Positions 1-19,686 of a DNA stretch of 21,528 bases are shown piece by piece. This DNA comes from a virus. Its lineage: Duplodnaviria > Heunggongvirae > Uroviricota > Caudoviricetes. The DNA is taken from the IMG/VR virus record IMGVR_UViG_2526164668_000015. One strand, written 5' to 3'. The stretch's first letter is position 1. Each line of letters opens with the position of its first letter. The notes below the pieces were generated by a model. It worked only from the letters and a program-made list of their open reading frames with translations. It had not been told where the DNA came from and did not search any database. The position numbers and the translations under genes were made by a program.

Positions 1-202
1 TACTGATAAGTTCCAGATCCTCCTGGCAACTTGCACAAGTCCGACAACCCTGAACGACCAGGCGTCTTCGTTCATCTATGGGATCGCCACACTCACAACA
101 ATGAGTGGCGGATATAGTCTGGTAGTTCAGACGACGCATTTTTATTGCTGTATTGCGCTGTAATTCTTCAATTTCTGATGCTGAATCAATGATGTCCGCC
201 AT
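1..202 (-). CDS. DksA/TraR-family C4 zinc-finger protein (lambda Orf73-like); 3' end lies outside the window
   Basis: Minus-strand ORF starting at ATG 202..200, translating MADIIDSASEIEELQRNTAIKMRRLNYQTISATHCCECGDPIDERRRLVVQGCRTCASCQEDLELIS. It contains two CxxC pairs typical of TraR/DksA zinc ribbons. The ORF runs off the window edge. Confidence 0.6.
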   Translation of the reverse strand, partial: MADIIDSASEIEELQRNTAIKMRRLNYQTISATHCCECGDPIDERRRLVVQGCRTCASCQEDLELIS

Positions 203-429
203 CTTTCATTAATCCCTGAATTGTTGGTTAATACGCTTGAGGGTAAATGCGAATAATAAAAAAGGAGCCTGTAGCTCCCTGATGATTTTGCTTTTCATGT
301 TCACCGTTCCTTAAAAACGCCGTTTAACATGCCGATTGCCAGGCTTAAAATGAGTCGGTGTGAATCCCATCAGCGTTACCGTTTCGCGGTGCTTCTTCAG
401 TACGCTACGGCAAAATGTCATCGACGTTT

Positions 430-615
430 TTATTCCGGAAACTGCTGTCTGGCTTTTTTGATTTCAGAATTAGCCTGACGGGCAATGCTGCGAAGGGCGT
501 TTTCCTGCTGAGGTGTCACTGAACAAGCCCCATGTCGGCAAGCATAAGCACACAGAATATGAAGCCCGCTGCCAGAAAAATGCATTCAGTGGTTGTCATA
601 CCTGGTCTCTTTCAT
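430..615 (-). pseudogene. lambda orf61-like reading frame with an in-frame TGA at codon 10
   Basis: ATG at 615 gives MKETRYDNH, then TGA, then the same frame continues MHFSGSGLHILCAYACRHGACSVTPQQENALRSIARQANSEIKKARQQFPE to TAA at 430. The total of 61 codons matches lambda orf61 length and position relative to orf63. The stop is seen directly in the sequence. Confidence 0.4.
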
Positions 616-787
616 CTGCTTCTGCTTTCGCCACCATCATTTCCAGCTTTTGTGAAAGGGATGTGGCTAACGTATGAAATTCTTCGTCTGTTTCTACTGG
701 TATTGGCACAAACCTGACTCCAATTTGAGCAAGGCTATGTGCCATCTCAATACTCGTTCTTAACTCAACAGGAGATGCTTTGTGCAT
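596..787 (-). CDS. lambda Orf63-like small protein
   Basis: 63-aa ORF at the position and length of lambda orf63, downstream of exo in the pL operon. It overlaps orf60a and orf61 as in lambda. Confidence 0.65.
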   Translation of the reverse strand: MHKASPVELRTSIEMAHSLAQIGVRFVPIPVETDEEFHTLATSLSQKLEMMVAKAEADERDQV

Positions 788-942
788 ACCGCCTCCCGTT
801 TATTATTTATCTTCTCAGCCAGCCGCTGTGCTTTCAGTGGATTTCTGATAACAGAAAGGCCGGGAAATACCCAGCCTCGCTTTGTAACGGAGTAGACGAA
901 AGTGATCGCGCCTACCCGGATATTATCGTGAGGATGCGTCAT
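760..942 (-). CDS. lambda Orf60a-like small protein
   Basis: ORF immediately downstream of exo on the minus strand, 60 aa from the second in-frame Met. Position and length are as in lambda. Confidence 0.6.
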
Positions 943-1619
943 CGCCATTGCTCCCCAAATACAAAACCAATTTCAGCCAGTGCCTCGTCCATTTTTTCGA
1001 TGAACTCCGGCACCATCTCGTCAAAACTCGCCATGTACTTTTCATTCCGCTCAATCACGACATAATGCAGTCCTTCACGCTTCATACGCGGGTCATAGTT
1101 GGCAAAGTACCAGGCATCTTTTCGTGTCACCCACATGCTGTACTGCACCTGGGCCATGTAGGCCGATTTTATGGCCTCGAAACCACCGAGCCGGAATTTC
1201 ATGAAATCCCGGGAGGTAAACGGGCATTTCAGTTCAAGGCCGTTGCCGTCACTGCATAAACCATCCGGAGAGCAGGCGGTGCGCATACTTTCGTCGCGAT
1301 AGATGATCGGGGATTCAGTAACATTCACGCCGGAAGTAAACTCAAACAGGGCTCTGGCGTCGTTTTCGTACTGTTTTCCCCAGGCCAGCGCTTTAGCGTT
1401 AACTTCCGGAGCCACACCGGTGCAAACCTCAGCAAGCAGGGTGTGGAAGTAGGACATTTTCATGTCAGGCCACTTTTTTCCGGAGCGGGGTTTTGCTATT
1501 ACATTATGAACTTCTGACGCTGTGATGACACCGAGCCGTAATTTGTGCCACGCATCATCCCCCTGTTCGACAGCTCTCACGTCGATCCCGGTACGCTGCA
1601 GGATAATGTCCGGTGTCAT
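939..1619 (-). CDS. exo: lambda exonuclease (Red-alpha, 5'-3' dsDNA exonuclease)
   Basis: 226-aa translation [65 protein letters not shown]... ending ...[11 protein letters not shown] matches lambda Exo in length and sequence as recalled. Confidence 0.97.
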
Positions 1620-2403
1620 GCTGCCACCTTCTGCTCTGCGGCTTTCTGTTTCAGGAATCCAAGAGCTTTCACTGCTTCGGCCTGTGTCAGTTCTGACGAT
1701 GCGCGAATGTCGCGGCGAAATATCTGGGAACAGAGCGGCAATAAGTCGTCATCCCATGTTTTATCCAGGGCGATCAGCAGAGTGTTAATCTCCTGCATGG
1801 TTTCATCGTTTACCGGAGTGATGTCGCGTTCCGGCTGGCGTTTCTGCAGTGTATGCAGTATTTTTCGACAATGCGCTCGGCTTCATCCTTGTCATAGATA
1901 CCAGCAAATCCGAAGGCCAGACGGGCACACTGAATCATAGCTTTATGCCGTAACATCCGTTTAGGATGCGACTGCCACGGCCCCGTGATTTCTCTGCCTT
2001 CGCGGGTTTTGAATGGTTCGCGGCGGCATTCATCCATCCATTCGGTAACGCAGATCGGATGATTACGGTCCTTGCGGTAAATCCGGCATGTACAGGATTC
2101 ATTGTCCTGCTCAAAGTCCATGCCATCAAACTGCTGGTTTTCATTGATGATGCGGGACCAGCCATCAACGCCCACCACCGGAACGATGCCGTTCTGCTTA
2201 TCAGGGAAGGCGTAAATTTCTTTCGTCCACGGATTAAGGCCGTACTGGTTGGCGACGATCAACAATGCGATGAACTGCGCATCGCTGGCATCGCCTTTAA
2301 ATGCCGTCTGGCGAAGAGTGGTGATCAGTTCCTGTGGGTCGACAGAATCCATGCCGACACGTTCAGCCAGCTTCCCTGCCAGCGTTGCGAGTGCTGTACT
2401 CAT
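1616..2403 (-). pseudogene. bet: bet (Red-beta single-strand annealing protein) disrupted by frameshift
   Basis: The N-terminal 187 aa (MSTALATLAGKLAERVGMDSV...DKDEAERIVE) match lambda Bet, then the frame changes to KYCIHCRNASRNATSLR-stop. The Bet C-terminus ([18 protein letters not shown]...[11 protein letters not shown]) continues in another frame at 1616..1798. Two extra A residues relative to the lambda codons, in the runs gtcgaaaaatact and gcagaaacgcc near 1830-1860, account for the net +2 shift. Confidence 0.9.
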
Positions 2404-2408
2404 CCGTT

Positions 2409-2825
2409 TTATACCTCTGAATCAATATCAACCTGATGGTGAGCAATGGTTTCAACCATGTACCGGATGTGTTCTGCCATGCGCTCCTGAAACTCAACAT
2501 CGTCATCAAACGCACGGGTAATGGCTTTTTTGCTGGCCCCGTGGCGTTGCAAATGACCGATGCATAGCGATTCAAACAGGTGCTGGGGCAGGCCTTTTTC
2601 CATGTCGTCTGCCAGTTCTGCCTCTTTCTCTTCACGGGCTATCTGCTGGTAGTGACGCGCCCAGCTCTGAGCCTCAAGACGATCCTGAATGTAATAAGCG
2701 TTCATGGCCGAACTCCTGAAATAGCTGTGAAAATATCGCCCGCGAAATGCCGGGCTGATTAGGAAAACAGGAAAGGGGGTTAGTGAATGCTTTTGCTTGA
2801 TCTCAGTTTCAGTATTAATATCCAT
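2409..2825 (-). CDS. gam: Gam, RecBCD inhibitor
   Basis: 138-aa translation [61 protein letters not shown]... matches lambda Gam. Confidence 0.97.
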
Positions 2826-2923
2826 TTTTTATAAGCGTCGACGGCCTCACGAAACATCTTTTCATCGCCAATAAAAGTGGCGATAGTGAATTTAGTCTGG
2901 ATAGCCATAATTGTTTGATCCAT
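2780..2923 (-). CDS. kil: Kil (host killing, FtsZ-targeting) protein
   Basis: 47-codon [50 protein letters not shown], overlapping gam and cIII as in lambda. Confidence 0.85.
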
Positions 2924-3056
2924 TTTTTTGGACTCCTGGCTGATTAAGTATGTCGATAAGGCGTTTCCATCCGTCACGTAATTTACGGGTGATTCGTTCA
3001 AGTAAAGATTCGGAAGGGCAGCCAGCAACAGGCCACCCTGCAATGGCATATTGCAT
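2892..3056 (-). CDS. cIII: CIII, FtsH protease inhibitor that stabilises CII
   Basis: 54-aa translation [54 protein letters not shown] from ATG at 3056. This is below the 60-aa ORF-track cutoff and was found by hand. Confidence 0.9.
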   Translation of the reverse strand: MQYAIAGWPVAGCPSESLLERITRKLRDGWKRLIDILNQPGVQKNGSNNYGYPD

Positions 3057-3128
3057 GGTGTGCTCCTTATTTATACATAACGAAAAACGCCTCGAGTGAA
3101 GCGTAATTGGTATGCGGTAACGCCGCGC

Positions 3129-3497
3129 TCAGGCGGCCTTGATAGTCATATCATCTGAATCAAATATTCCTGATGTATCGATATCGGTAATTCTTATTCC
3201 TTCACTACCATCCATTGGAGGCCATCCTTCCTGACCATTTCCATCATTCCAGTCGAACTCACACACAACACCATATGCATTTAAGTCGCTTGAAATTGCT
3301 ATAAGCAGAGCATGTTGCGCCAGCATGATTAATACAGCATTTAATACAGAGCCGTGTTTATTGAGTCGGTATTCAGAGTCTGACCAGAAATTATTAATCT
3401 GGTGAAGTTTTTCCTCTGTCATTACGTCATGGTCGATTTCAATTTCTATTGATGCTTTCCAGTCGTAATCAATGATGTATTTTTTGATGTTTGACAT
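3129..3497 (-). CDS. ea10: Ea10 (Ssb-like early protein)
   Basis: 122-aa ORF MSNIKKYIIDYDWKASIEIEIDHDVMTEEKLHQINNFW... at the lambda ea10 position between cIII and the N-proximal region. Confidence 0.88.
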   Translation of the reverse strand: MSNIKKYIIDYDWKASIEIEIDHDVMTEEKLHQINNFWSDSEYRLNKHGSVLNAVLIMLAQHALLIAISSDLNAYGVVCEFDWNDGNGQEGWPPMDGSEGIRITDIDTSGIFDSDDMTIKAA

Positions 3498-3514
3498 CTG
3501 TTCATATCCTCACA

Positions 3515-3543
3515 GATAAAAAATCGCCCTCATCTTGGAGGGC
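3515..3543 (-). terminator. candidate intrinsic terminator (minus-strand tL-type) upstream of ea10
   Basis: On the minus strand GCCCTC-caagat-GAGGGC is followed by GATTTTTTAT: a 6-bp GC stem, 6-nt loop and U6 tract. Confidence 0.4.
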
Positions 3544-3685
3544 AAAGAAGATTTCCAATAATCAGAACAAGTCGGCTCCTGTTTAGTTACGAGCGACATT
3601 GCTCCGTGTATTCACTCGTTGGAATGAATACACAGCGCTGTGTTTATTCTGTTGTTTGCGTGAAAATGAAATCCGCCTGAGCGGG

Positions 3686-4567
3686 TTATGACCACTTTTT
3701 GTTTGGGTTTCGTTGGTGAGCGTGGTTTACAGGATTATTTGATATACCCCATAACTCTGACTCGCTTATCTCTACACGAGAGAAAGACCTGCTTTCTTTC
3801 AGTTCTTTTATAAACCTAGAACCTAAGATGACATCTATTGTACCAGAAAGTTCTTGTAAAAGATCTATGTTTTTTCTGAGGAAGAAAATATCTTCTTTAT
3901 ATTTAATTTTTACATAGAATTTATTCTGTATTTTTAATATATCAAAGCATGGCAGATATCTATATCCCTCATATTTTCGCCACTGCTTAACAATTATAAC
4001 ATCTTTTTCATTTACTGCATTAATCAGCCCAAGACCAAGTACAGGTATGAATATTCTATTGTCTGCCGAAAGCGTACAATTATCACCACCAGGCAAATAT
4101 GTATAAATCATGTCGGAATTTTTATACGCATCAACGAATGCACGTAAGAAGCGTACATATTTTTGCCATCCGTTTATACCGAATTTACCATATAAGTATT
4201 CTTTATTTGTTAGAAGAAAACTATTTGTATCAGGATCCTTATCTACAGACCTGTCGATAAGATCTCCAACTACGTTTACAAAGTCAAAGACAGAGTTTAA
4301 TAAGAACAATTGTCTTTCAGTAGGGCGAATTTCAATTATGTAGCCAGGATGAAGACGATATTGCATCTGCTTACGAAGTATACCGAACGCTTGGGTCCGA
4401 GCATCTGAAAGCAACTTCTTGTCGCCATCGCCGTGAGCATTGTTTCTAATAAAACTGATATAATTTGCTAATTTTTCAGCCTCTTTTTTGTGTTTTTTTC
4501 GCTCTGATGCTGAGTCTATTGGTTTTGGTATGGACTTGTAATCAATCTTCTTCATTACGTACCTCAT
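3686..4567 (-). CDS. hypothetical 293-aa protein, AT-rich, translationally coupled to N; function unknown
   Basis: Long minus-strand ORF whose ATG (4567..4565) overlaps the N stop codon (4566..4564) in an ATGA arrangement. It occupies the lambda ral/sieB interval between N and ea10, but the translation (MRYVMKKIDYKSIPKPIDSASERKKHKKEAEKLANYISFIRNN...) resembles neither. Base composition is visibly more AT-rich than the flanking lambda-like genes. Confidence 0.8.
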   Translation of the reverse strand: MRYVMKKIDYKSIPKPIDSASERKKHKKEAEKLANYISFIRNNAHGDGDKKLLSDARTQAFGILRKQMQYRLHPGYIIEIRPTERQLFLLNSVFDFVNVVGDLIDRSVDKDPDTNSFLLTNKEYLYGKFGINGWQKYVRFLRAFVDAYKNSDMIYTYLPGGDNCTLSADNRIFIPVLGLGLINAVNEKDVIIVKQWRKYEGYRYLPCFDILKIQNKFYVKIKYKEDIFFLRKNIDLLQELSGTIDVILGSRFIKELKESRSFSRVEISESELWGISNNPVNHAHQRNPNKKWS

Positions 4568-4887
4568 GCCAATGGAATGGATTCCCCTTTAACCTTTTGT
4601 CTTCCTTGACAAGTTATACCGAACTCACCTGGCTTGCTATACCAAACTCGATGATTCTTGCGCTCAATACGTTGCAGGTTGCTTTCAATCTGTTCGTGGT
4701 ATTCAGCCAGCACCGTAAGGTCTATCGGATTCAGTGCGCTTTCTACTCGTGATTTCGGTTTGCGATTCAGCGAGAGAATAGGGCGGTTAACTGGTTTAGC
4801 GCTTACCCCAACCAACAGGGGATTTGCTGCTTTCCATTGAGCCTGTTTCTCTGCGCGACGTTCGCGGCGGCGTGTTTGTGCATCCAT
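4564..4887 (-). CDS. N: N transcription antiterminator
   Basis: 107-aa translation from ATG 4887: MDAQTRRRERRAEKQAQWKAANPLLVGVSAKPVNRPILSLNRKPKSRVESALNPIDLTVLAEYHEQIESNLQRIERKNHRVWYSKPGEFGITCQGRQKVKGESIPLA. The N-terminal arginine-rich motif matches lambda N as recalled; the C-terminal third carries several substitutions. Confidence 0.95.
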   Translation of the reverse strand: MDAQTRRRERRAEKQAQWKAANPLLVGVSAKPVNRPILSLNRKPKSRVESALNPIDLTVLAEYHEQIESNLQRIERKNHRVWYSKPGEFGITCQGRQKVKGESIPLA

Positions 4888-5044
4888 CTGGATTCTCCTG
4901 TCAGTTAGCTTTGGTTGTGTGTGGGAGTCGTAGTCCTGAACGAAAACACCCCGCAATGGCACATTGGCAGCTAATCCGGATTCGCACTTCCGGCCAATGC
5001 TTCGTTTCGTATCACACACACCAAAGCCTTCTGCTTTGAATGCT

Positions 5045-5075
5045 GCCCTTCTTCAGGGCTTAATTTTTAAGAGCC
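5045..5075 (-). promoter_or_regulatory. nutL (boxA-like plus boxB hairpin)
   Basis: On the minus strand: GGCTCTTAAAAATTAAGCCCTGAAGAAGGGC. BoxB GCCCTGAAGAAGGGC is the exact lambda nutL boxB; the boxA-like element reads GGCTCTTA rather than the recalled lambda CGCTCTTA. Confidence 0.75.
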
Positions 5076-5120
5076 TCACCTTCAATGGTGGTCAGTGCGT
5101 CCTGCTGATGGCTTAAAATT

Positions 5121-5188
5121 ACAAGGAAGATTGTATGTTGTAAACAAGAAATATTGTAAAAAGGGGCGTGAAAAACAAACTCCATTGT
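5121..5188. promoter_or_regulatory. oL operators (434-type 14-mers) with pL
   Basis: Three 14-bp sites with ACAA...TTGT ends: ACAAGGAAGATTGT (5121-5134), ACAAGAAATATTGT (5144-5157), ACAAACTCCATTGT (5175-5188). They are of the 434 operator class and sit upstream of the N leader. Confidence 0.85.
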
Positions 5189-5238
5189 TTTTAAACGGAA
5201 AATAGTTTGTTTTTTTGTTATCGAGATTGAGGTGGGGA

Positions 5239-6591
<1,353 letters not shown>

Positions 6592-6599
6592 GACATTCC

Positions 6600-6631
6600 C
6601 GCTCTTACACATCCCAGCCCTGAAAAAGGGC
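6600..6631 (+). promoter_or_regulatory. nutR (boxA CGCTCTTAC plus boxB GCCCTGAAAAAGGGC)
   Basis: Exact lambda nutR boxA (6600-6608) and boxB hairpin (6617-6631) lie between cro and cII. Confidence 0.85.
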
Positions 6632-6710
6632 ATCAAAATAAACCACACCTATGGTGTATGCATTTATTTGCATACATTCAATCAATTGTTATCTAAGGAA
6701 ATACTTACAT

Positions 6711-7004
6711 ATGGTTCGTGCAAACAAACGCAACGAGGCTCTACGAATCGAGAGTGCGTTGCTTAACAAAATCGCAATGCTTGGAACTGAGAAGACAGCG
6801 GAAGCTGTGGGAGTTGATAAGTCGCAGATCAGCAGGTGGAAGAGGGATTGGATTCCAAAGTTCTCAATGCTGCTTGCTGTTCTTGAATGGGGTGTCGTCG
6901 ACGACGACATGGCTCGATTGGCACGACAAGTTGCTTCGATTCTCACCAATAAAAAACGCCCGGCGGCAACCGAGCGTTCTGAACAAATCCAGATGGAATT
7001 CTGA
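6711..7004 (+). CDS. cII: CII transcriptional activator
   Basis: 97-aa translation MVRANKRNEALRIESALLNKIAMLGTEKTAEAVGVDKSQISRWKRDWIPKFSMLLAVLEWGVVDDDMARLARQVASILTNKKRPAATERSEQIQMEF matches lambda CII. Confidence 0.95.
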   Translation: MVRANKRNEALRIESALLNKIAMLGTEKTAEAVGVDKSQISRWKRDWIPKFSMLLAVLEWGVVDDDMARLARQVASILTNKKRPAATERSEQIQMEF

Positions 7005-7026
7005 GGTTATTACTGGAACTATCAAC
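6950..7026 (-). ncRNA. oop: oop antisense RNA (overlaps 3' end of cII)
   Basis: Minus strand GTTGATAGTTCCAGTAATAACCTCAGAATTCCATCTGGATTTGTTCAGAACGCTCGGTTGCCGCCGGGCGTTTTTTATT matches the recalled lambda oop RNA with a few substitutions. It ends in a GC-rich hairpin plus U-tract. Confidence 0.7.
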
Positions 7027-7036
7027 AGGAGTCATT

Positions 7037-7936
7037 ATGACAAATACAGCAAAAATACTCAACTTCGGCAGAGGTAACTTTGCCGGACAGGAGCGTAATG
7101 TGGCAGATCTCGATGATGGTTACGCCAGACTATCAAATATGCTGCTTGAGGCTTATTCAGGCGCAGATCTGACCAAGCGACAGTTTAAAGTGCTGCTTGC
7201 CATTCTGCGTAAAACCTATGGGTGGAATAAACCAATGGACAGAATCACCGATTCTCAACTTAGCGAGATTACAAAGTTACCTGTCAAACGGTGCAATGAA
7301 GCCAAGTTAGAACTCGTCAGAATGAATATTATCAAGCAGCAAGGCGGCATGTTTGGACCAAATAAAAACATCTCAGAATGGTGTATCCCTCAAAACGAGG
7401 GAAAATCCCCTAAAACGAGGGATAAAACATCCCTCAAATTGGGGGATTGCTATCCCTCAAAACAGGGGAACACAAAAGACACTAATACAAAAGAAAATAG
7501 AAAAGATTATTCGTCAGAGAATTCTGGCGAATCCTCTGACCAGCCAGAAAACGACCTTTCTGTGGTGAAACCTGATGCTGCAATTCAGAGCGGCAGCAAA
7601 TGGGGGACAGCAGAAGACCTGACCGCCGCAGAGTGGATGTTTGACATGGTGAAGACTATCGCGCCATCAGCCAGAAAACCGAATTTTGCAGGGTGGGCTA
7701 ACGATATCCGCCTGATGCGTGAACGTGACGGACGTAACCACCGCGATATGTGTGTGCTGTTCCGCTGGGCCTGCCAGGACAACTTCTGGTCCGGTAATGT
7801 GCTGAGCCCGGCCAAACTCCGCGACAAGTGGACCCAGCTCGAAATCAACCGTAACAAGCAACAGGCAGTCGTGACAGCCAGCAAACCAAAACTCGACCTG
7901 ACAAACACAGACTGGATTTACGGGGTGGATTTATGA
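7037..7936 (+). CDS. O: O replication initiator
   Basis: 299-aa translation MTNTAKILNFGRGNFAGQERNVADLDDGYARLSNMLLEAYSGADLTKRQFKVLL... matches lambda O and contains the origin iterons. Confidence 0.97.
   Translation: MTNTAKILNFGRGNFAGQERNVADLDDGYARLSNMLLEAYSGADLTKRQFKVLLAILRKTYGWNKPMDRITDSQLSEITKLPVKRCNEAKLELVRMNIIKQQGGMFGPNKNISEWCIPQNEGKSPKTRDKTSLKLGDCYPSKQGNTKDTNTKENRKDYSSENSGESSDQPENDLSVVKPDAAIQSGSKWGTAEDLTAAEWMFDMVKTIAPSARKPNFAGWANDIRLMRERDGRNHRDMCVLFRWACQDNFWSGNVLSPAKLRDKWTQLEINRNKQQAVVTASKPKLDLTNTDWIYGVDL
7385..7530 (+). repeat. lambda-type origin: four ~18-bp O-binding iterons plus AT-rich unwinding region
   Basis: ATCCCTCAAAACGAGGGA, ATCCCCTAAAACGAGGGA, ATCCCTCAAATTGGGGGA and ATCCCTCAAAACAGGGGA in tandem, followed by an AT-rich stretch, all inside O. 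Confidence 0.85.
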
Positions 7937-8634
7937 AAAACATCGCCGCACAGATGGTTAACTTTGACCGTGAGCAGATGCGTCGGATCGCCAACAACAT
8001 GCCGGAACAGTACGACGAAAAGCCTCAGGTACAGCAGGTAGCGCAGATCATCAACGGTGTGTTCAGCCAGTTACTGGCAACTTTCCCGGCGAGCCTGGCT
8101 AACCGTGACCAGAACGAACTGAACGAAATCCGCCGCCAGTGGGTTCTGGCTTTCCGGGAAAACGGGATCACCACAATGGAACAGGTTAACGCAGGAATGC
8201 GCGTAGCCCGTCGGCAGAATCGACCATTTCTGCCATCACCCGGGCAGTTTGTTGCATGGTGCCGGGAAGAAGCATCCGTTATCGCCGGACTGCCAAACGT
8301 CAGCGAGCTGGTTGATATGGTTTACGAGTATTGCCGGAAGCGAGGCCTGTATCCGGATGCGGAGTCTTATCCGTGGAAATCAAACGCGCACTACTGGCTG
8401 GTTACCAACCTGTATCAGAACATGCGGGCCAATGCGCTTACTGATGCGGAATTACGGCGCAAGGCTGCCGATGAACTGTCCTGTATGACCGCACGAATTA
8501 ACCGTGGTGAGGCTATACCTGAACCAGTAAAACAACTTCCTGTCATGGGCGGTAGACCTCTAAATCGTGCACAGGCTCTGGCGAAGATCGCAGAAATCAA
8601 AGCTAAGTTTGGGCTGAAAGGAGCAAGTGTATGA
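7933..8634 (+). CDS. P: P replication protein (DnaB helicase loader)
   Basis: 233-aa translation MKNIAAQMVNFDREQMRRIANNMPEQYDEKPQVQQVAQIINGVFSQLLATFPAS... matches lambda P. The start overlaps the O stop. Confidence 0.97.
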   Translation: MKNIAAQMVNFDREQMRRIANNMPEQYDEKPQVQQVAQIINGVFSQLLATFPASLANRDQNELNEIRRQWVLAFRENGITTMEQVNAGMRVARRQNRPFLPSPGQFVAWCREEASVIAGLPNVSELVDMVYEYCRKRGLYPDAESYPWKSNAHYWLVTNLYQNMRANALTDAELRRKAADELSCMTARINRGEAIPEPVKQLPVMGGRPLNRAQALAKIAEIKAKFGLKGASV

Positions 8635-8921
8635 CGGGCAAAGAGGCAATTATTCATTACCTGGGGACGCATAATAGCTTCTGTGCGCCGGACGTTGCCG
8701 CGTTAACAGGCGCAACAGTAACCAGCATAAATCAGGCCGCGGCTAAAATGGCACGGGCAGGTCTTCTGGTTATCGAAGGTAAGGTCTGGCGAACGGTGTA
8801 TTACCGGTTCGCTACTAGGGAAGAACGGGAAGGAAAGATGAGCACGAACCTGATTTTTAAGGAGTGTCGCCAGAGTGCCGCGATGAAACGGGTATTGGCG
8901 GTATATGGAGTTAAAAGATGA
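8631..8921 (+). CDS. ren: Ren (protects against Rex exclusion)
   Basis: 96-aa ORF MTGKEAIIHYLGTHNSFCAPDVAALTGATVTSINQAAAKMARAGLLVIEGK... matches lambda Ren and is coupled to P. Confidence 0.9.
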   Translation: MTGKEAIIHYLGTHNSFCAPDVAALTGATVTSINQAAAKMARAGLLVIEGKVWRTVYYRFATREEREGKMSTNLIFKECRQSAAMKRVLAVYGVKR

Positions 8922-8994
8922 CCATCTACATCACTGAGCTAATAACAGGCCTGCTGGTAATCGCAGGCCTTTTTATTTGGGGGAGAGGGAAGTC

Positions 8995-9435
8995 ATGAAA
9001 AAACTAACCTTTGAAATTCGATCTCCAGCACATCAGCAAAACGCTATTCACGCAGTACAGCAAATCCTTCCAGACCCAACCAAACCAATCGTAGTAACCA
9101 TTCAGGAACGCAACCGCAGCTTAGACCAAAACAGGAAGCTATGGGCCTGCTTAGGTGACGTCTCTCGTCAGGTTGAATGGCATGGTCGCTGGCTGGATGC
9201 AGAAAGCTGGAAGTGTGTGTTTACCGCAGCATTAAAGCAGCAGGATGTTGTTCCTAACCTTGCCGGGAATGGCTTTGTGGTAATAGGCCAGCCAACCAGC
9301 AGGATGCGTGTAAGCGAATTTGCGGAGCTATTAGAGCTTATACAGGCATTCGGTACAGAGCGTGGCGTTAAGTGGTCAGACGAAGCGCGACTGGCTCTCG
9401 AATGGAAAGCGCGATGGGGAGATCGGGCTGCATGA
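8995..9435 (+). CDS. ninB: NinB (Orf recombination mediator)
   Basis: 146-aa ORF MKKLTFEIRSPAHQQNAIHAVQQILPDPTKPIVVTIQERNRSLDQNRKLWACLGDV... matches lambda NinB. Confidence 0.9.
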   Translation: MKKLTFEIRSPAHQQNAIHAVQQILPDPTKPIVVTIQERNRSLDQNRKLWACLGDVSRQVEWHGRWLDAESWKCVFTAALKQQDVVPNLAGNGFVVIGQPTSRMRVSEFAELLELIQAFGTERGVKWSDEARLALEWKARWGDRAA

Positions 9436-9959
9436 CTATCAAATCAAATACGCCAGCACACGACAAGGACTGCTGGCAAACGCCGCTTTGGCTTTTTGAT
9501 GCACTGGATATTGAGTTTGGATTCTGGCTGGATTCGGCAGCGAGCGACAAAAACGCTCTGTGCGCTCACTGGCTAACTGAGGCTGACGACGCGCTAAATT
9601 CTGAGTGGATAAGCCACGGTGCAATCTGGAATAACCCACCGTACAGCAATATCAGGCCGTGGGTGGAAAAAGCCGCTGAGCAGTGCATACAACAGCGACA
9701 GACGGTAGTGATGCTTGTGCCAGAGGATATGTCTGTCGGATGGTTCAGCAAGGCTCTGGAGAGTGTTGACGAAGTTCGTATTATCACTGATGGACGGATT
9801 AATTTTATCGAACCATCGACAGGGCTGGAGAAGAAGGGAAACAGCAAAGGCTCCATGCTGCTGATTTGGCGACCGTTCATTAGTCCTCGACGGATGTTTA
9901 CTATCGTATCCAAAGCGGCATTGATGGCGATCGGGCAGGGCGTCAGGAGGGCGACATGA
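9432..9959 (+). CDS. phage Dam-family DNA N6-adenine methyltransferase (orphan MTase)
   Basis: 175-aa [51 protein letters not shown]...[21 protein letters not shown]... with the (D/N)PPY catalytic motif. It is ATGA-coupled to ninB on one side and ninE on the other, in the position of lambda ninC/ninD. Confidence 0.8.
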
Positions 9960-10138
9960 GGCGACAACGACGAAGTTTCACCGACATCATCTGCGAAAAC
10001 TGCAAATACCTTCCAACGAAACGCTCCAGAAATAAACGCAAGCCAATCCCAAAAGAATCTGACGTAAAAACCTTCAACTACACGGCTCACCTGTGGGATA
10101 TCCGGTGGCTAAGACATCGTGCGAGGAATACAAGGTGA
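9956..10138 (+). CDS. ninE: NinE
   Basis: 60-aa [63 protein letters not shown], lambda NinE-like. Confidence 0.8.
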
Positions 10139-10305
10139 TTGACCCAAATCGAAGTTACGAACAAGAAAGCGTCGAGCGGGCTTTAACGTGCGCTAATTGC
10201 GGTCAGAAGCTGCATGTGCTGGAAGTTCACGTGTGTGAGCACTGCTGTGCAGAGCTGATGAGCGATTCGAATAGCTCGATGCACGAGGAAGAAGATGATG
10301 GCTAA
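10135..10305 (+). CDS. ninF: NinF (Cys-rich small protein), probable GTG start
   Basis: [56 protein letters not shown] matches lambda NinF. The GTG at 10135 overlaps the ninE stop. Confidence 0.75.
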
Positions 10306-10909
10306 ACCAGCGCGAAGACGATGTAAAAACGATGAATGTCGGGAATGGTTTCACCCTGCATTCGCTAATCAGTGGTGGTGCTCTCCAGAGTGTGGAACCA
10401 AGATAGCACTCGAACGACGAAGTAAAGAACGCGAAAAAGCGGAAAAAGCAGCAGAGAAGAAACGACGACGAGAGGAGCAGAAACAGAAAGATAAACTTAA
10501 GATTCGAAAACTCGCCTTAAAGCCCCGCAGTTACTGGATTAAACAAGCCCAACAAGCCGTAAACGCCTTCATCAGAGAAAGAGACCGCGACTTACCATGT
10601 ATCTCGTGCGGAACGCTCACGTCTGCTCAGTGGGATGCCGGACATTACCGGACAACTGCTGCGGCACCTCAACTCCGATTTGATGAACGCAATATTCACA
10701 AGCAATGCGTGGTGTGCAACCAGCACAAAAGCGGAAATCTCGTTCCGTATCGCGTCGAACTGATTAGCCGCATCGGGCAGGAAGCAGTAGACGAAATCGA
10801 ATCAAACCATAACCGCCATCGCTGGACTGTCGAAGAGTGCAAGGCGATCAAGGCAGAGTACCAACAGAAACTCAAAGACCTGCGAAACAGCAGAAGTGAG
10901 GCTGCATGA
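10295..10909 (+). CDS. ninG: NinG (Rap) recombination-associated endonuclease
   Basis: 204-aa [54 protein letters not shown]... matches lambda NinG. Confidence 0.9.
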
Positions 10910-11571
10910 ATATCTACGAAAGAATTGATGGCAGCAAATACCGAAATATTTGGGTAGCTGGCGACCTGCACGGATGCTACACGAACCTGATGAACAAACT
11001 GGATACGATTGGATTCGACACCAAAAAAGACCTGCTCATCTCGGTTGGCGATTTGGTTGATCGCGGTACAGAGAACGTCGAATGTCTGGAATTAATCACA
11101 TTCCCCTGGTTCAGAGCTGTGCGTGGAAACCATGAGCAAATGATGATTGATGGCTTATCAGAGCGTGGAAACGTTAATCACTGGCTGCTTAATGGCGGTG
11201 GCTGGTTCTTTAATCTCGATTACGACAAAGAGACTCTGGCTAAAGTTCTTGCCCATAAAGCAGAAGAACTTCCGTTAATCATCGAACTGGTGAGCAAAGA
11301 TAAAAAATATGTCATTTGCCACGCCGATTATCCTTGTGATAAATACGAGTTTGGAAAGCCAGTTGATCATCAGCAGGTAATCTGGAACCGCGAACGAATC
11401 AGCAACTCACAAGACGGGATCGTGAAAGAAATCAAAGGCGCGGACACGTTCATCTTTGGTCATACGCCAGCAGTGAAACCACTCAAATTTGCCAACCAGA
11501 TGTATATCGATACTGGCGCAGTGTTCTGCGGAAACCTCACATTGATTCAGGTACAGGGAGAAGGCGCATGA
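10906..11571 (+). CDS. ninI: NinI Ser/Thr protein phosphatase (lambda PPase)
   Basis: 221-aa ORF with calcineurin-like metallophosphatase motifs GDLHG, GDLVDRG and GNHE. It matches lambda NinI and follows ninG directly with no ninH. Confidence 0.9.
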
Positions 11572-11657
11572 GACTCGAAAGCGTAGCTAAATTTCATTCG
11601 CCAAAAAGCCCGATGATGAGCGACTCACTACTGGCCACAGTTTATTGGTTTTCGTAA
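11568..11657 (+). pseudogene. Q: truncated remnant of lambda Q antiterminator (29 codons)
   Basis: ATG overlapping the ninI stop encodes [20 protein letters not shown], identical to the lambda Q N-terminus as recalled. It then diverges (LLATVYWFS) and stops at 11655-11657. Confidence 0.7.
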
Positions 11658-11700
11658 CTGAGTCATTTTATTATTTTATTGCAACTTTTAATCTTTTATA

Positions 11701-11747
11701 GTGCGAAATAAATGGAGCTGGCATTCATTTCGCACTTTATGTTTTTG
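11701..11747. terminator. hairpin plus T-tract between convergent genes (candidate bidirectional terminator)
   Basis: GTGCGAAAT (11701-11709) pairs with ATTTCGCAC (11727-11735) as a 9-bp stem around a 17-nt loop, followed by TTTATGTTTTTG. It lies between the Q remnant (+) and the convergent outer-membrane gene (-). Confidence 0.45.
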
Positions 11748-11782
11748 TTGGACTTATGTTATTTTGATTGAATTCAATTCAG

Positions 11783-12742
11783 TTAAAAAAAGAAGGTGAT
11801 TGCTCCATTTATAAATGAATAGTCATCCCCTGTCTTGAATTCTGATGTTACTTTATTAAATGCTAGTGTGAAGGCTACAGGTGCATACCCAATTGTTGCG
11901 CCAACTTGATATTCATCAACAGTTTTGTTTAGCGATACTGTTGTTTGTTTCGTCTGTATTGTTTTTCCTTCGAGAGTATAGTTGCGATTGACATCTCGTC
12001 TTTCCATACCTGCAAAAATCTTGTATTTGAATCCGCTTGTATCGGACATATGCATTAAACCACGGGGAGCCAGCAGACCAAAGCCATTATCCGAATTGAA
12101 GGTTTTATCATTACCAATGGCAATGGTTGCGCCATATGCTACATATTGAAATAAGTTTCCAGTAACAGCAGAAACTTCAGGGTATAATCCAACATTAGCA
12201 CCTAAAATATCCATACTTGGTGTCATGGATAGCATCCCTTTTACAGTATAACCGTAGCGATTCTCTATTTGATCATCCCATGCATGATATTTTTCTGCCC
12301 CAATAATCTCATGAGCTTTATTTTGTACTTTCTGACCGCCTGCGTCGGGGCCAACAACACCTATGTCAGTACCTAATCGATAGCGAATCCAGTCATTCGC
12401 AAGGGAGTTCCATTCAATACCAGTGTGAGTGTATGCACTAAAAGCTCTGTCTCCAGTTACAGCTGTGTTGTGTCTTTTATTACTGCCTGATGGAGAGTAA
12501 ATATCTTGCGCAATATGGAGAGATAATTGGCTCGAGTCTGAGATATCGTGGCTATATCCCAGAAATAAGCCTTGTGAGTAATCATCTCTGTTTTCATGTT
12601 TATTGCCATAAATATCATTAAGTATTGGTTGAAACTTCCCTGCATCATCATTTGCTAATGATAATGCAAGGCTGTTCGCGATAGCTGAACACGTGGTAAA
12701 TGACAGAGCAATAAAGACGCCAGCGATGACACTTTTTTTCAT
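11783..12742 (-). CDS. outer-membrane beta-barrel protein; size and architecture compatible with an LpxR-type lipid A 3'-O-deacylase (unverified)
   Basis: 319-aa ORF with signal peptide MKKSVIAGVFIALSFTTCSAIA and C-terminal aromatic beta-signal ...INGAITFFF. It is AT-rich with a long AT-rich upstream region (12743-13130). The LpxR assignment rests only on length, OMP architecture and a recalled prophage-encoded LpxR in pathogenic E. coli. Confidence 0.8.
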   Translation of the reverse strand: MKKSVIAGVFIALSFTTCSAIANSLALSLANDDAGKFQPILNDIYGNKHENRDDYSQGLFLGYSHDISDSSQLSLHIAQDIYSPSGSNKRHNTAVTGDRAFSAYTHTGIEWNSLANDWIRYRLGTDIGVVGPDAGGQKVQNKAHEIIGAEKYHAWDDQIENRYGYTVKGMLSMTPSMDILGANVGLYPEVSAVTGNLFQYVAYGATIAIGNDKTFNSDNGFGLLAPRGLMHMSDTSGFKYKIFAGMERRDVNRNYTLEGKTIQTKQTTVSLNKTVDEYQVGATIGYAPVAFTLAFNKVTSEFKTGDDYSFINGAITFFF

Positions 12743-13216
12743 ATGTTATTGTCTTCCTTTTTTTTGAATGGTGCGCGTATTTTACATACATGAGTTTGTA
12801 ATACAAGGTGCGTAATCAATATGATGTTTTATAATTGCGTGAGACAATTGATTTATTCGTTTTTTATTGCGGTTTTTATTATCTTTTAATGTAACGGTGT
12901 TTTTATTAAGTGTGTTTGCGTGGTGTTTTATGTTTTTTATAATTTTTATTTTATTAAATTTAAATGCATTAGTAATGGCTATTCTATATAGCAATATAAG
13001 AACTGTTACAAAAAAAGGGGGGCAATTACAGGTAGTTATGGATGATGAGTGAAACAGATATTGGAGAACCGGGGAATGAATGATGTCTGAGTCTTATATA
13101 TCAGAACTCCTTCGCTGTCGCTGGGGGCTCCTGTGCTTATGTCGTTTCCCCGATTCGGTTTTGAACGATTACCGAATGTTGAAGAATTATGCCAAAATAT
13201 AGAAAGGATTTACTGC

Positions 13217-13906
13217 ATGAATACCCAATATTTACAGTATGTTCGTGAGCAACTTATGGCAGCTACTGCTGACTTGAACGGAGCAACGAAAGGCCAGCTC
13301 GAAGCCTGGCAGGAGCATGCACAATTTGATACTGGTACATACAAACGAAAGAAGCTGCGCATTCTGGATGTGGTAACTGGCAAGATGATTACGCTGGATA
13401 ATACGCCGACTTCCGGTAAGCAGTCGTACGCAAAAGGTTCATCCATTGCTTTGGTCAGCCCGGTTGAATTCTCAACCTCTTCATGGCGCCGCGCGGTTTT
13501 GTCTCTCGATGAACATCAGAAAGCATGGTTGCTTTGGTGTTACAGCGAAAGCGTTCGATGGGGGCATCAGGTCACCATAACGCAATGGGCATGGAGCGAG
13601 TTTAAAGATTTGTTAAGTAACAGAAAAATTGCAGGTAAGACACTGGATCGCCTGAAGACGTTAATCTGGCTGGCTGCACAGGATGTGAAGAGCGAACTTG
13701 CAGGGCGTGAGGCCTATGAATACCAGACACTGGCATCATTGGTGGGAGTGACAACAAAAAACTGGTCCGAGACATTTACTGAACGCTGGGTTGCAATGAA
13801 GCACATTTTTCTACAGCTTGATAGTGATGCTTTATTGCTTGTGACGAGAACACGTTCAAAACAAAAGGCAGCATTTTTACAGCAAAATATTGCAAAACTG
13901 GATTAA
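13217..13906 (+). CDS. putative late-gene antiterminator (Q-like, non-lambda family), 229 aa; alternative start at 13133
   Basis: ORF with an AAAGGA Shine-Dalgarno before ATG 13217. It sits where Q is expected, after the nin genes and the Q remnant, and is immediately followed by a sigma70 promoter plus short-transcript terminator. There is no recognisable similarity to lambda Q, so the assignment is by position and context only. Confidence 0.5.
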   Translation: MNTQYLQYVREQLMAATADLNGATKGQLEAWQEHAQFDTGTYKRKKLRILDVVTGKMITLDNTPTSGKQSYAKGSSIALVSPVEFSTSSWRRAVLSLDEHQKAWLLWCYSESVRWGHQVTITQWAWSEFKDLLSNRKIAGKTLDRLKTLIWLAAQDVKSELAGREAYEYQTLASLVGVTTKNWSETFTERWVAMKHIFLQLDSDALLLVTRTRSKQKAAFLQQNIAKLD

Positions 13907-13918
13907 AAGCCATATACT
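13890..13918 (+). promoter_or_regulatory. candidate late promoter (pR'-like): TTGCAA-N17-TATACT
   Basis: -35 TTGCAA (13890-13895), 17-nt spacer, -10 TATACT (13913-13918), directly downstream of the Q-like ORF stop. Confidence 0.5.
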
Positions 13919-13951
13919 TCATGCAAATTTGGTATGTTGTAAAAAATGTAT

Positions 13952-13978
13952 AAACCCGCTGCCGAGTGGGTTTTTTTT
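13952..13978 (+). terminator. intrinsic terminator (tR'-like) about 30-50 nt downstream of the candidate late promoter
   Basis: AAACCCGC-tgccga-GTGGGTTT followed by TTTTTTTT: an 8-bp stem (one G-U pair), 6-nt loop and T8 tract. Confidence 0.65.
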
Positions 13979-14247
13979 ATGCCCTGAGTTGTACTTGTAC
14001 GGTAAACATGCTGGCTGCTATGTAATAGAGTTTTTTTAGCCTGTAACCTCTTGACGGCATTGAATTGCTTTTGTTATGAGTTGTAAGCCAATGTTATCAT
14101 CTTGTATTGGGGTGGTTATGAAGGATGGTGCGCTGCTCAGGAGTTCTTCACTTTTTATTGCCTACATGGGATGCCTTGGATGGGGGAGTGCTTATTTCTA
14201 TGGATGGGGTACTTCTTTTTACTACGGCTTCCCATGGTGGATTGTAG

Positions 14248-14595
14248 GTGCAGGTGTTGATGATGTTGCCAGAAGTTTATTTTTTTGCAGTTATCGTCAT
14301 TGCTATATTTCTTATCGGTTGGGGTATTGGTGTTGTATTCTTTTTCGCAGTGAAAAGAAAACATTCTATGCAAGAGCTAAATGTATTTCGCCTTTATTTT
14401 GCTGTGGAATTATTGTTTGTGCCGGCAATTATTGAGTTTTCTATATTGAGACAGAAGATTCAGGTACCTCTTTTGCTACTGTCAGCAGCGATTGCGCTGG
14501 CGGTTACAATTTCGATAAGATCTTATGGGCGATTTTTATCGGTATCATGCTTCTATGATAAGCCATTTATAAAAAACATTTTTTTGAGATTGTGA
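14248..14595 (+). CDS. small integral membrane protein (about 3 TM helices), AT-rich cargo gene
   Basis: Translation ...LPEVYFFAVIVIAIFLIGWGIGVVFFFAVKRKHSMQELNVFRLYFAVELLFVPAIIEFSILRQKIQVPLLLLSAAIALAVTISI... has three hydrophobic segments. The start is ambiguous (GTG 14248, ATG 14260 or 14263). An overlapping upstream ORF (14076-14435) may be its frameshifted N-terminus. Confidence 0.5.
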   Translation: MQVLMMLPEVYFFAVIVIAIFLIGWGIGVVFFFAVKRKHSMQELNVFRLYFAVELLFVPAIIEFSILRQKIQVPLLLLSAAIALAVTISIRSYGRFLSVSCFYDKPFIKNIFLRL

Positions 14596-14834
14596 TGATT
14601 GCTTTTGTGGCATATTTTTGGCTTTTTTCATTTCTGACAGGATATTACAAACCACAGTTTAAGAAAGAATATGAAATGATTAATTATAATGATGGTTGGT
14701 ATTATGTTCTTGCTCGTTATGATAATTGTCTGGTTTTGTCTACTTCTTTCAATGCAGGTAGTAAAAGGTTTGTCATTTATCAATCAGCACAAGATAAGAA
14801 TCTTCAGGTTGATATTGTAAGGACCAGAATTTAA
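14592..14834 (+). CDS. small protein with N-terminal TM helix, coupled to the preceding membrane protein
   Basis: MMIAFVAYFWLFSFLTGYYKPQFKKEYEMINYNDGWYYVLARYDNCLVLSTSFNAGSKRFVIYQSAQDKNLQVDIVRTRI. The ATG overlaps the upstream TGA stop (ATGA). Confidence 0.5.
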   Translation: MMIAFVAYFWLFSFLTGYYKPQFKKEYEMINYNDGWYYVLARYDNCLVLSTSFNAGSKRFVIYQSAQDKNLQVDIVRTRI

Positions 14835-15124
14835 TTGGCTGCATAAATAATATTTTAAGTTGCAAGTTGGCTATTCGTAGGAATAGAACCTTAGGCATGC
14901 TGAATGCGTTTTCTGAACATTGTTTTATAAACTGTGTCTGCTTGCTGTTGTGATCCTGCTTTTAGTGATGGTGATGATGGATTTCACCAGCAGGATAATG
15001 TTGGTACTGACTGATGGCGCTCTGGTCTGCGGCATTGTGGTATTGCTGTGGCCGATGATGAAAGAACAGGTGATGCTGCCAACTTACTGATTTAGTGTAT
15101 GATGGTGTTTTTTGAGGTGCTCCA

Positions 15125-15400
15125 GTGGCTTCTGTTTCTATCAGCTGTCCCTCCTGTTCAGCTACTGACGGGGTGGTGCGTAACGGCAAAAGCACCGCCG
15201 GACATCAGCGCTATCTCTGCTCTCACTGCCGTAAAACATGGCAACTGCAGTTCACTTACACCGCTTCTCAACCCGGTACGCACCAGAAAATCATTGATAT
15301 GGCCATGAATGGCGTTGGATGCCGGGCAACTGCCCGCATTATGGGCGTTGGCCTCAACACGATTTTACGTCACTTAAAAAACTCAGGCCGCAGTCGGTAA
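15125..15400 (+). CDS. insA: IS1 InsA
   Basis: 91-aa translation [91 protein letters not shown]. Confidence 0.95.
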
Positions 15401-15822
15401 CCTCGCGCATACAGCCGGGCAGTGACGTCATCGTCTGCGCGGAAATGGACGAACAGTGGGGCTATGTCGGGGCTAAATCGCGCCAGCGCTGGCTGTTTTA
15501 CGCGTATGACAGTCTCCGGAAGACGGTTGTTGCGCACGTATTCGGTGAACGCACTATGGCGACGCTGGGGCGTCTTATGAGCCTGCTGTCACCCTTTGAC
15601 GTGGTGATATGGATGACGGATGGCTGGCCGCTGTATGAATCCCGCCTGAAGGGAAAGCTGCACGTAATCAGCAAGCGATATACGCAGCGAATTGAGCGGC
15701 ATAACCTGAATCTGAGGCAGCACCTGGCACGGCTGGGACGGAAGTCGCTGTCGTTCTCAAAATCGGTGGAGCTGCATGACAAAGTCATCGGGCATTATCT
15801 GAACATAAAACACTATCAATAA
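15319..15822 (+). CDS. insB: IS1 InsB (transposase produced as InsAB' by frameshift)
   Basis: 167-aa ORF ...[72 protein letters not shown] overlapping insA in the -1 frame. Confidence 0.95.
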
Positions 15823-16581
15823 GTTGGAGTCATTACCAGTACCTTGTAGCCTTTATTTGCAGGATATAAAGGTAAAAACTCGGTTAATAATGGGTCAGGA
15901 CCTTTAATAGTTGTAAACTTGAACAAAATGACGTTAATATTATTAACGTAGATGATATTATCAGAACAACCTTCTTGCCATCCATTTTATCGCATTCAAA
16001 CATTATAAATGTACTTAGTATTATTCATAAATGATATCAAGATGGCACCTTAACCTTCACCCAAACGACGTTAACCAAATAAAAGAAAGTTAAGATGCCA
16101 TCGAAATATCATTAATTGCTGCATATCCTTTATCATACAATAACAAATGTTCTCCTTATTGTTTTTTTGTGCATCCCTGCTTTTAATATTTACATGCAAT
16201 GGAAAAACAGTATATGGAGAGAACTTTTCCGCAAAACATTTTCATATCCTACGCTCCTGAAATATAACAGATCCACTCAGACATAAATCGCAAAAAATTC
16301 AAGGTTAACGTAAAATGTAAAAAACTTAGCGTAACTAATATTGGTTTACCTTCGTTACTGTAAATACGCCAACATAGCATAGATAATCAATGAGGTATAG
16401 TCTGTTTATGAGAATTAATTTATAAAAACAAGTGAATAACAATGGAGAATTAATCCTTGCAGCTTATGAGTTTGTGAAGCAATTGGGAAAGAAAAATATA
16501 AATGATGTGAAAAAAAATAATTATTCGTCTTACCAATGCACTCGAGACTACTGATCCTACCCACGTAATGTGGACACGGCC

Positions 16582-19620: not shown

Positions 19621-19686
19621 CGAACTAAATTCATGCTATTTACTCCTCATCCTTTAAAACAGAAGTCGGATGTATCGTTTTTGGAA

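Follow-up and report, generated by a model that had tools for sequence, protein, structure and literature searches.

The Nun protein of phage HK022 is the textbook example of a phage protein that halts the transcription of a rival by physically jamming RNA polymerase. In classic Nun, a motif rich in arginine (ARM) at the N-terminus tethers the protein to the nascent nut RNA of phage lambda and, to our knowledge, Nun has so far been regarded as an isolated curiosity of HK022 that is directed against lambda. Here, a gene is described that lies on the minus strand of a 21,528-nucleotide (nt) stretch of viral DNA (IMG/VR record IMGVR_UViG_2526164668_000015, Caudoviricetes; in what follows, the window is this whole stretch), directly downstream of the antiterminator gene N. 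It was shown by sequence comparison that its product of 289 amino acids (aa) ends in the Nun arrest peptide and that the gene occupies the nun slot, and the explanation that we regard as rather probable is that it encodes a Nun-type transcription-elongation arrest and exclusion factor with an unusual, new targeting part. This assignment of a Nun-like function is drawn from sequence, and the GenBank annotators had already flagged the tail: the counterpart in Escherichia phage 434 (CPT_434_48/UMO75312.1), whose DNA in OL657226 is 99.7-99.9% identical to the gene, is named 'Nun C-terminal peptide-containing protein', and the record notes 'BLASTp similarity to phage HK022 transcription termination factor Nun'. 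The genome announcement of phage 434 does not discuss the gene (PMC9119081).

The way in which Nun stops RNA polymerase was described in a previous cryo-electron microscopy study, where only residues 87-109 were found ordered in the elongation complex, and this segment holds all known arrest determinants (PMC5386594). The peptide runs past the beta' zipper, lid and rudder; the rudder, the RNA and the template strand are touched by N97, H98 and H100, residues 102-109, including R102, K106, K107 and W108, occupy a pocket that already exists next to the rudder and lies between the hybrid and the downstream duplex, and N103 makes no important contact (PMC5386594). Additionally, saturating Nun arrests elongation complexes without nut, and specificity hinges on a tuned low concentration (PMC5386594). 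A first-pass annotation, made from the letters of the window, had stated that the gene product resembles no recognisable family, which has to be revised, as its last 14 residues (VNHAHQRNPNKKWS) are identical at 14 of 14 positions to residues 96-109 of HK022 Nun, with N97, H98, H100, R102, K106, K107 and W108 all present. The tail was matched by phrog_5632 (E=7e-5), by BLASTP (E=3e-8) and in the Nun translation from the HK022-like phage O276, and chain N of PDB entry 6ALG was the only significant PDB sequence match (E=9.5e-4; phmmer/hmmsearch). Outside the tail, no similarity between the gene product and Nun was found by BLASTP.

The tail is present in every full-length relative (P0003, P0035, P0005, P0004 and P0006, with 68, 47, 46, 42 and 38% identity, respectively), and its V, N, H, A, H, R, K, K and W residues are invariant across the family, the variable positions being Q101, N103, P104 and N105 in Nun numbering. 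In comparisons with three homologues by the NG86 method, the nonsynonymous divergence (pN) of the whole gene was 0.19-0.41 and the synonymous divergence (pS), which is saturated, was 0.83-0.89, by which measure the gene is real and under purifying selection. For the last 14 codons pN was 0.11-0.13, about one third of the gene-wide value, with a pS of at least 0.84. According to a different explanation, which we hold to be quite improbable, the tail would be functionally irrelevant, inherited by mosaic exchange at the 3' end of nun, and the folded domain would act on its own, for example as a DNA- or RNA-binding regulator. Such a view could draw on the 434 and O276 DNA, which is unrelated upstream and 95% identical over 3619-3731, from the tail codons through the hairpin in the 3' untranslated region (UTR), as is the signature of a mosaic junction, and on distant relatives that bear the core with a wholly different tail. 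Opposed to it is the retention of the tail down to 38-42% identity, where synonymous change is saturated, together with its low pN. In fact, the tail codons of three homologous loci (L003, L005 and L009) differ at synonymous positions and the DNA downstream of the tail in L003 is unrelated. For these reasons the tail is, on the evidence of codon divergence, under selection, and its interpretation as a mere recombination scar was rejected.

The position of the gene leads in the same direction as its tail. In L003, a metagenomic prophage, a 290-aa homologue follows a cI-like repressor gene and an HK022-type pL-putL without any N gene, which is the exact position of nun in HK022. The pL and putL of L003 (2860-3110) are about 95% identical to those of phage O276, the long protein replacing nun; this putL was recognised by alignment only, as Rfam has no put family. 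In phage 434, L005 and L009, the gene comes after a lambda-type N. The slot, which the first-pass annotation had read as the ral/sieB anti-restriction slot of lambda and proposed to compare among related prophages, was found there to hold Nun-tailed proteins of several kinds, usually right after N. A degenerate DNA pattern for the Nun tail retrieved at least 120 loci from IMG/VR. Besides classic Nun, of 112 aa when read from the first ATG, these encode the 434 type (25 loci) and numerous further proteins of 67-123 aa. The small proteins (L034-L152, such as L064, L038, L132, L048 and L074) carry diverse ARMs, which are lambda N-like, phi21 N-like or of other kinds, and their genes, in IMG/VR as well as in E. 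coli prophages (L030 1893-2539 and L031, for example), usually lie 1-7 nt 3' of an N gene that bears a different ARM. In at least 30 loci, classic lambda-boxB Nun stands behind an N of the phi21 type; a tailed protein with a phi21-like ARM was found behind lambda-type N, and tailed proteins with lambda-like ARMs were found behind other N types; among the matches listed, lambda-type N precedes 23 of the 25 genes of the 434 type. Therefore, the position directly after N is a general nun slot, and the tail is a portable effector set on interchangeable targeting parts. These pairs of N and an apparently heterotypic Nun suggest a widespread family of nut-specific exclusion factors, of which literature searches gave no description. 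The 434 type shares with the small proteins the tail and the place after N and differs from them in its size and architecture, being the only one, among the architectures seen, that joins a large folded domain to the Nun tail.

As regards targeting, HK022 Nun has 109 aa and a boxB-binding ARM, whereas the 434 protein has a folded module of ~220 residues and no ARM, its N-terminus being rich in lysine and devoid of any arginine-rich stretch. HK022 Nun acts on lambda nut; phage 434 itself uses lambda-type N and nut, so that lambda nut cannot be the target of its protein. A lambda-boxB ARM would then be self-destructive for 434, which makes a different targeting part understandable. An AlphaFold2 (AF2) model built from a 27-sequence alignment (pLDDT 78.5 overall, mostly 80-95 in the core) begins with a helical hairpin (residues 16-65), followed by a strand (72-77) and then three helices (80-145); five strands with a helix (152-217) come next, and a long helix (221-258) precedes the tail, which is of low confidence. 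The hairpin is found in the Nun-tailed subfamily and is missing from most distant relatives. The core (isoelectric point, pI, 8.96) contains the motifs IIEIRPTERQ..L...F (73-92), CTLSADNRIFIPVLGLGLI (160-178) and GYRYLPCFDILKIQNKFYVKIKY (197-219). A further family-wide motif, ESRSFSRVEISE (254-265), recurs in distant relatives as S-x-S-[YF]-[SA]-R-V-[DE], and the low-confidence segment that follows it is probably a flexible linker.

The fold of the core points to the TnpB/Cas12 group, and it is probable that it represents a WED (beta-barrel)/REC (helical) module of that kind without RuvC. In a Foldseek search against the PDB, Cas12f, Cas12-lambda (Cas12l), Cas12k and Cas12p accounted for 10 of the 12 top matches (E 0.027-0.34, prob up to 0.72), and against BFVD the matches were giant-virus TnpB-type 'transposases' (E 0.003, prob 0.93). 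When the family was compared by hhalign with ten phage TnpBs, its residues 69-221 were aligned collinearly with TnpB 2-170 over 144 columns (P=0.0088), and the alignment stops at the very column of TnpB in which GIDLG, the RuvC-I motif, starts. In the controls, reversed sequences gave P of about 0.2, and 1 of 80 block-shuffles reached the score, none with more than 91 aligned columns. The distant subfamily alone reproduced the alignment (P=0.03), and the Nun-tailed subfamily alone aligned only in the first strand and helix (P=0.078). Additionally, the family pattern I-E-L-x-P-x3-Q-x3-L-x3-F-G fits the N-terminus of TnpB, where the motif P-x3-Q-x3-L-x3-F-G is common to both. The similarity was not detectable by HMMER, and no OrfB_IS605 or OrfB_Zn_ribbon match was found in Pfam; scans of the 289-aa protein with Pfam, NCBIfam and PADLOC gave no match.

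The element order of the 434 core, with the probable WED barrel split by a helical REC insertion, is that of TnpB and Cas12f (IS200/IS605 OrfB). In contrast, the half that carries RuvC (D-E-D) and the Zn-ribbon/TNB is wholly absent rather than inactivated, and the helix, linker and tail stand in its place; homology to TnpB is tentative. Precedents for transcription regulators that derive from TnpB and are encoded by phages exist in TldR and in the exapted homologues of Cas12f. TldR keeps an inactivated RuvC and a guide RNA, whereas the 434 protein has neither the RuvC half nor a guide locus, and TldR and TnpB act by guide-directed promoter occlusion or cleavage, whereas the 434 protein is proposed to act on the elongating polymerase through its tail. 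Flanking non-coding DNA is not conserved among 434, L003 and L009 and has no Rfam match, Rfam likewise giving none in or around the gene or in L003 and L005, and the intergenic gaps beside the relatives linked to BREX are merely 22-34 nt. An RNA-guided mechanism with a cis-encoded guide was for these reasons considered unlikely and set aside.

The predicted fold also bears on a nuclease, which the first-pass annotation had glimpsed in a D...E-x-K arrangement, and on an abortive-infection toxin, which it had given as a second choice. The only feature that favours a PD-(D/E)xK nuclease or a toxin is the motif IDVILGSRFIKELK (residues 240-253 of 289), and either identity is very improbable, the segment lying in a long helix predicted with modest confidence, its D being replaced by E and its E-x-K lost in P0004, P0006 and all distant relatives. 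No nuclease appeared among the sequence or fold matches, and the TnpB-like part is entirely without RuvC. The nuclease was consequently discarded, and the toxin fails on conservation and fold. The structural comparison that the same annotation had proposed returned Cas12/TnpB matches, which stay tentative, and no nuclease fold.

A profile search of 1.84 billion representatives returned 25 proteins, close relatives being few, and phrog_12139 recognises 24 of the 27 family members. The distant relatives (213-326 aa) share residues ~73-227 of the 434 protein and the motif S-x-x-Y-S-R-V-D-F, mostly have no N-terminal 70 residues and end in another conserved tail, …GGLPSLGKRR, for which the PDB holds no match; PADLOC and Pfam scans of these proteins gave nothing useful. 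The 434 gene is found in a phage pL operon, whereas these relatives (P0010-P0044) belong to bacterial BREX-like operons (BrxC-PglX) or to other islands. Among 5426 complete E. coli genomes, 83 (about 1.5%) carry the gene at full length, always on the chromosome and annotated as 'hypothetical protein'. By tblastn against 50,697 phage records only the two phage 434 records matched, and a scan of GTDB species-representative genomes returned no relative of the 434 type. Deletion derivatives occur as well. In one defective E. coli prophage (L032 3265-4370), the intact gene stands beside an N that has lost its N-terminus and the promoter region. In the cluster of P0008 (96 aa), the N-terminal 23 residues of Bet are fused to the C-terminal 73 residues of the protein.

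In five loci, L006, L007, L010, L012 (gene at 8001-8831/8867) and L011 (4390-5256), core relatives with the GGLPSLGKRR tail (P0028, P0032 and P0033) are fixed in a BREX-like operon, whose order is a 259-276-aa protein, BrxB, a BrxC-like protein (1152 aa), the core relative, a PglX-like methyltransferase, proteins of 376 and 423 aa, an HSP70-like protein (610 aa) and a second PglX-like protein, with a WYL/WCX regulator and an ADP-ribosylglycohydrolase upstream. None of these core relatives was matched by PADLOC. Core relatives were also seen in other island-like contexts (L008 2153-2992, L015 8001-8660 and L016 8001-8783): one lies between ParB_N and NYN/OST-HTH, near genes for a 1003-aa RelA_SpoT protein, PLDc_2 and MZB/helicase; one lies beside type I restriction-modification genes on a plasmid-like Crenobacter contig; and one lies in an integrase island with an SNF2 helicase. 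It is conceivable, though doubtful, that a Nun-type blocker of RNA polymerase translocation gained its targeting domain by exaptation of a RuvC-less WED/REC module from TnpB/Cas12, the sister clade with the …GGLPSLGKRR tail having become fixed in the BREX-like operon.

If the gene encodes a Nun-type factor, as we favour, the tail would enter the elongation complex as Nun does and block translocation. The ~220-residue module, formed by the basic hairpin and the WED/REC-like core, would stand in for the ARM as the targeting device and would bind a nucleic-acid signal, either structured nascent RNA or DNA, so that the tail would be locally concentrated at particular elongation complexes, and the helix and flexible linker that connect the module to the tail would give it reach. 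Targeting part, flexible linker and arrest tail are presumably the logic shared with HK022 Nun (UniProt P18683), with which the gene also shares the early-left position, after pL/putL or directly after N, and the 3' UTR hairpin. The protein would serve in the arrest of transcription of competing phages or mobile elements, be it as superinfection exclusion or as competition during co-infection or induction. That a conflict function is the most plausible in general, as the first-pass annotation had proposed, is in agreement with these data.

Several observations weigh against a Nun-type factor. Nun contacts upstream DNA through H93 and R94, and neither residue is conserved in the 289-aa protein. 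In the 434 lineage the tail stands, by alignment, at a mosaic junction, where recent recombination did occur. No sigma-70-like promoter was found on the minus strand at 4567-5019 by a consensus scan, which a weak promoter could escape, and the gene thus also differs from nun in that a promoter of its own was not detected; consequently, it is only putative that the gene is expressed in the lysogen, as classic exclusion would require, and the protein may act only in early infection or induction. Lastly, literature searches for the 434 gene, for Nun homologues and for a link between TnpB and Nun gave nothing relevant.

With its Nun tail, the protein would be directed at RNA polymerase and would act in exclusion as Nun does or, less likely, in a general shut-off or hijack of host transcription, which overlaps with the 'host-takeover' alternative of the first-pass annotation. 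In that case, an abundant pL product with a Nun tail would arrest host complexes indiscriminately, the phage's own N-modified complexes being spared or outcompeting it, and the folded domain would contribute to stability, to docking on RNA polymerase or to regulation instead of choosing the target. Such an activity would fit the arrest without nut at saturating Nun (PMC5386594) and the immediate-early position of the gene, tightly linked to N and with no lysogenic promoter seen. However, lambdoid phages need the host RNA polymerase throughout, including for Q-modified late transcription; the L003 homologue sits in a put-type phage that has no N; the core of ~150 residues is common to relatives without a Nun tail, which argues for specific binding; and the gene is intact in the 83 E. 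coli genomes, defective prophages included. On balance, host shut-off is unlikely, and a Nun-type factor with its own targeting module is preferred.

The coordinates of the gene, of the parts of its product and of the signals around it are given in Table 1.

Table 1. Coordinates, in the window, of the Nun-tailed gene, its protein segments and adjacent signals
Feature	Position	Strand	Details and basis
Coding sequence, 289-aa protein	3686..4555	-	Stop codon 3686-3688 included; phage 434 annotated coding sequence; phrog_12139
Four extra in-frame codons (MRYV) from first ATG	4556..4567	-	Absent from the starts of homologues and from the PHROG profile
Shine-Dalgarno GAGG	4562..4565	-	Sequence GGCATGAGGTACGTAATGAA; ribosome-binding site annotated at the same place in OL657226
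Residues 1-68, basic two-helix hairpin (pI 10.05)	4352..4555	-	AF2 helices 16-38 and 43-65, pLDDT 83-95; alignment A4
Residues 69-220, conserved core	3896..4351	-	AF2, Foldseek, hhalign
Residues 221-275, long helix (221-258) into motif, then linker	3731..3895	-	AF2; motif common to distant relatives
Residues 276-289, Nun C-terminal RNA-polymerase arrest peptide	3689..3730	-	phrog_5632, BLASTP, PDB match
Lambda-type antiterminator N, 107 aa	4564..4887	-	Pfam N36 E=2.8e-26; GenBank annotation; translation
Short GC hairpin and U-rich run after stop codon	3658..3685	-	CCGCUCAGGCGGAUUUCAUUUU; blastn breakpoints, alignment, fold
Intrinsic terminator, tL2a-like	3524..3545	-	Terminator scan; annotated in OL657226 and O276

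The first-pass annotation had read an open reading frame (ORF) of 293 codons at 3686-4567, and this ORF is indeed uninterrupted on the minus strand when counted from its first ATG. It had also taken the start to overlap the N stop. The overlap exists, the first ATG (4567-4565) and the TGA of N (4566-4564) forming ATGA; the probable start is nevertheless the second ATG, at 4555, because a GAGG Shine-Dalgarno sequence, which overlaps the N stop codon, lies 6 nt 5' of it and because PHROG 12139, all homologues and the GenBank coding sequence begin there. In fact, phrog_12139, a family of unknown function, matched with E=8e-206 over all 289 profile positions, from residue 5 to residue 293 of the 293-aa reading. 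The MRYV codons are thus probably untranslated as part of the protein, and the ATGA overlap is probably incidental, since divergent relatives have no such overlap, the distance from the N stop to the start of the gene being 8 nt in L005 and 1 nt in L009. The only amino acid difference from the phage 434 protein is K227I (3875-3877); residue 227 is Ile in the window (RKNIDLL) and Lys (RKNKDLL) in phage 434, P0001, P0003, P0004 and P0005. The AT-richness reported earlier was borne out, the GC content being 0.347 in the gene (0.30 at third codon positions), 0.496 in the N ORF interval (4564-5019) and 0.452 in the window.

Homology to lambda extends as far as 3657 (98.3%) and sets in again at 4574 (92.4%); therefore, the 434-specific module (3658-4573) takes the exact place of lambda ral-orf28-sieB between N and ea10 (DUF2528). 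The earlier description of one gene filling the N-ea10 interval thus stands, as an accessory, moron-like replacement. Its favoured reading, however, had been an anti-restriction or anti-defence function, that is, a protein that would inhibit a host system early in infection. The exact replacement of ral/sieB and the early expression accord with this, as do the distant core relatives inside BREX-like and other defence islands. On the other hand, the protein was found to resemble neither Ral nor Ocr nor ArdA and to match no anti-defence, PADLOC, Pfam or NCBIfam profile, its conserved, effector-like feature is a peptide for RNA polymerase arrest, and the relatives in defence islands look like components of defence operons, not like phage inhibitors, so that such a function is improbable. 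An analogue of Ral or SieB, in particular, was rejected, there being no PHROG or Pfam match beyond phrog_12139 and the Nun tail, and the lambda DNA match stopping at the borders of the module. Ral and SieB share with the 434 gene the interval and, presumably, an accessory, conflict-related function; they differ from it in lacking any sequence or structural similarity and in their mechanisms, restriction alleviation and abortive exclusion, respectively.

It is a sound inference from the arrangement of the genes that the gene is co-transcribed with N from pL as an immediate-early product, as had been proposed, because the space that separates the gene from N is too small to hold a terminator. 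On its 3' side, the hairpin after the stop codon is common to the 3' end of HK022-type nun and not to lambda; it may act as a weak terminator-like element and was not flagged in the terminator scan. The first strong terminator 3' of the gene is the tL2a-like one, and the strong folding of the 3' UTR (z = -4.7) corresponds to ordinary tL2 sequence shared with lambda. Being the second gene of the pL operon and directly coupled to N, the gene might be thought to regulate 434 early transcription itself, arresting or terminating pL (or pR) transcripts at specific sites and thereby timing or limiting kil, cIII and others, all the more as the phage's own transcripts could supply the pause sites and the tether that Nun-type arrest needs. 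Such autoregulation is nonetheless improbable, as lambda and lambda imm434 manage without the gene and homologues occur in phages that differ in early architecture, of the N type and of the put type. Exclusion directed at other elements remains the preferred role for the Nun-tailed protein.

The surroundings of the gene are largely those of phage 434. The window is 99.9% identical to phage 434 (OL657226/OL657227) over 3500-4700 and 99.4% over 1-15069, and its right-hand 30% (15070-21528) is without a phage 434 match at megablast level; judged by these alignments, the window is a 434-like mosaic and not phage 434 itself. Its immunity region is imm434, with the 434 cI and cro and with Hex overlapping cI. 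Hex, the 'repressor protection protein', corresponds to a 158-aa ORF at 5239-5715 on the minus strand, over the 3' end of cI; this ORF matches phrog_2651 (unknown function), and its coding sequence in GenBank is shorter (405 nt), the record noting that the published start codon is wrong. In bet (1780-1880, minus strand), the window departs from phage 434 by one substitution and by a 1-nt insertion of A in each of two homopolymer runs (GAAAAAT for GAAAAT and CAGAAAC for CAGAAC); these changes break the gene into ORFs of 197 and 60 aa, which indicates either a defective copy or a sequencing error. Several strongly AT-rich islands occur at about 11600-13200, 14000-15000 and 15800-16600.

Most of the classical '434' experiments used lambda imm434. 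This phage carries ral/sieB in place of the gene, which explains why the gene has been overlooked. The loci collected here indicate that the arrest peptide of Nun is a portable module, spread over many lambdoid prophages and typically paired with a heterotypic N, and that one lineage, found in phage 434 and in about 1.5% of complete E. coli genomes, has attached to this peptide a folded domain of possible TnpB/Cas12 descent. If this exaptation were true, it would be a third kind for TnpB, besides the nucleases and the promoter-occluding TldR/dCas12f, acting on the elongating polymerase by means of a portable peptide. The link of folds would then connect TnpB exaptation with the control of transcription elongation and would suggest a compact design for targeted elongation arrest, and the relatives in defence islands would offer a further lead for BREX biology.

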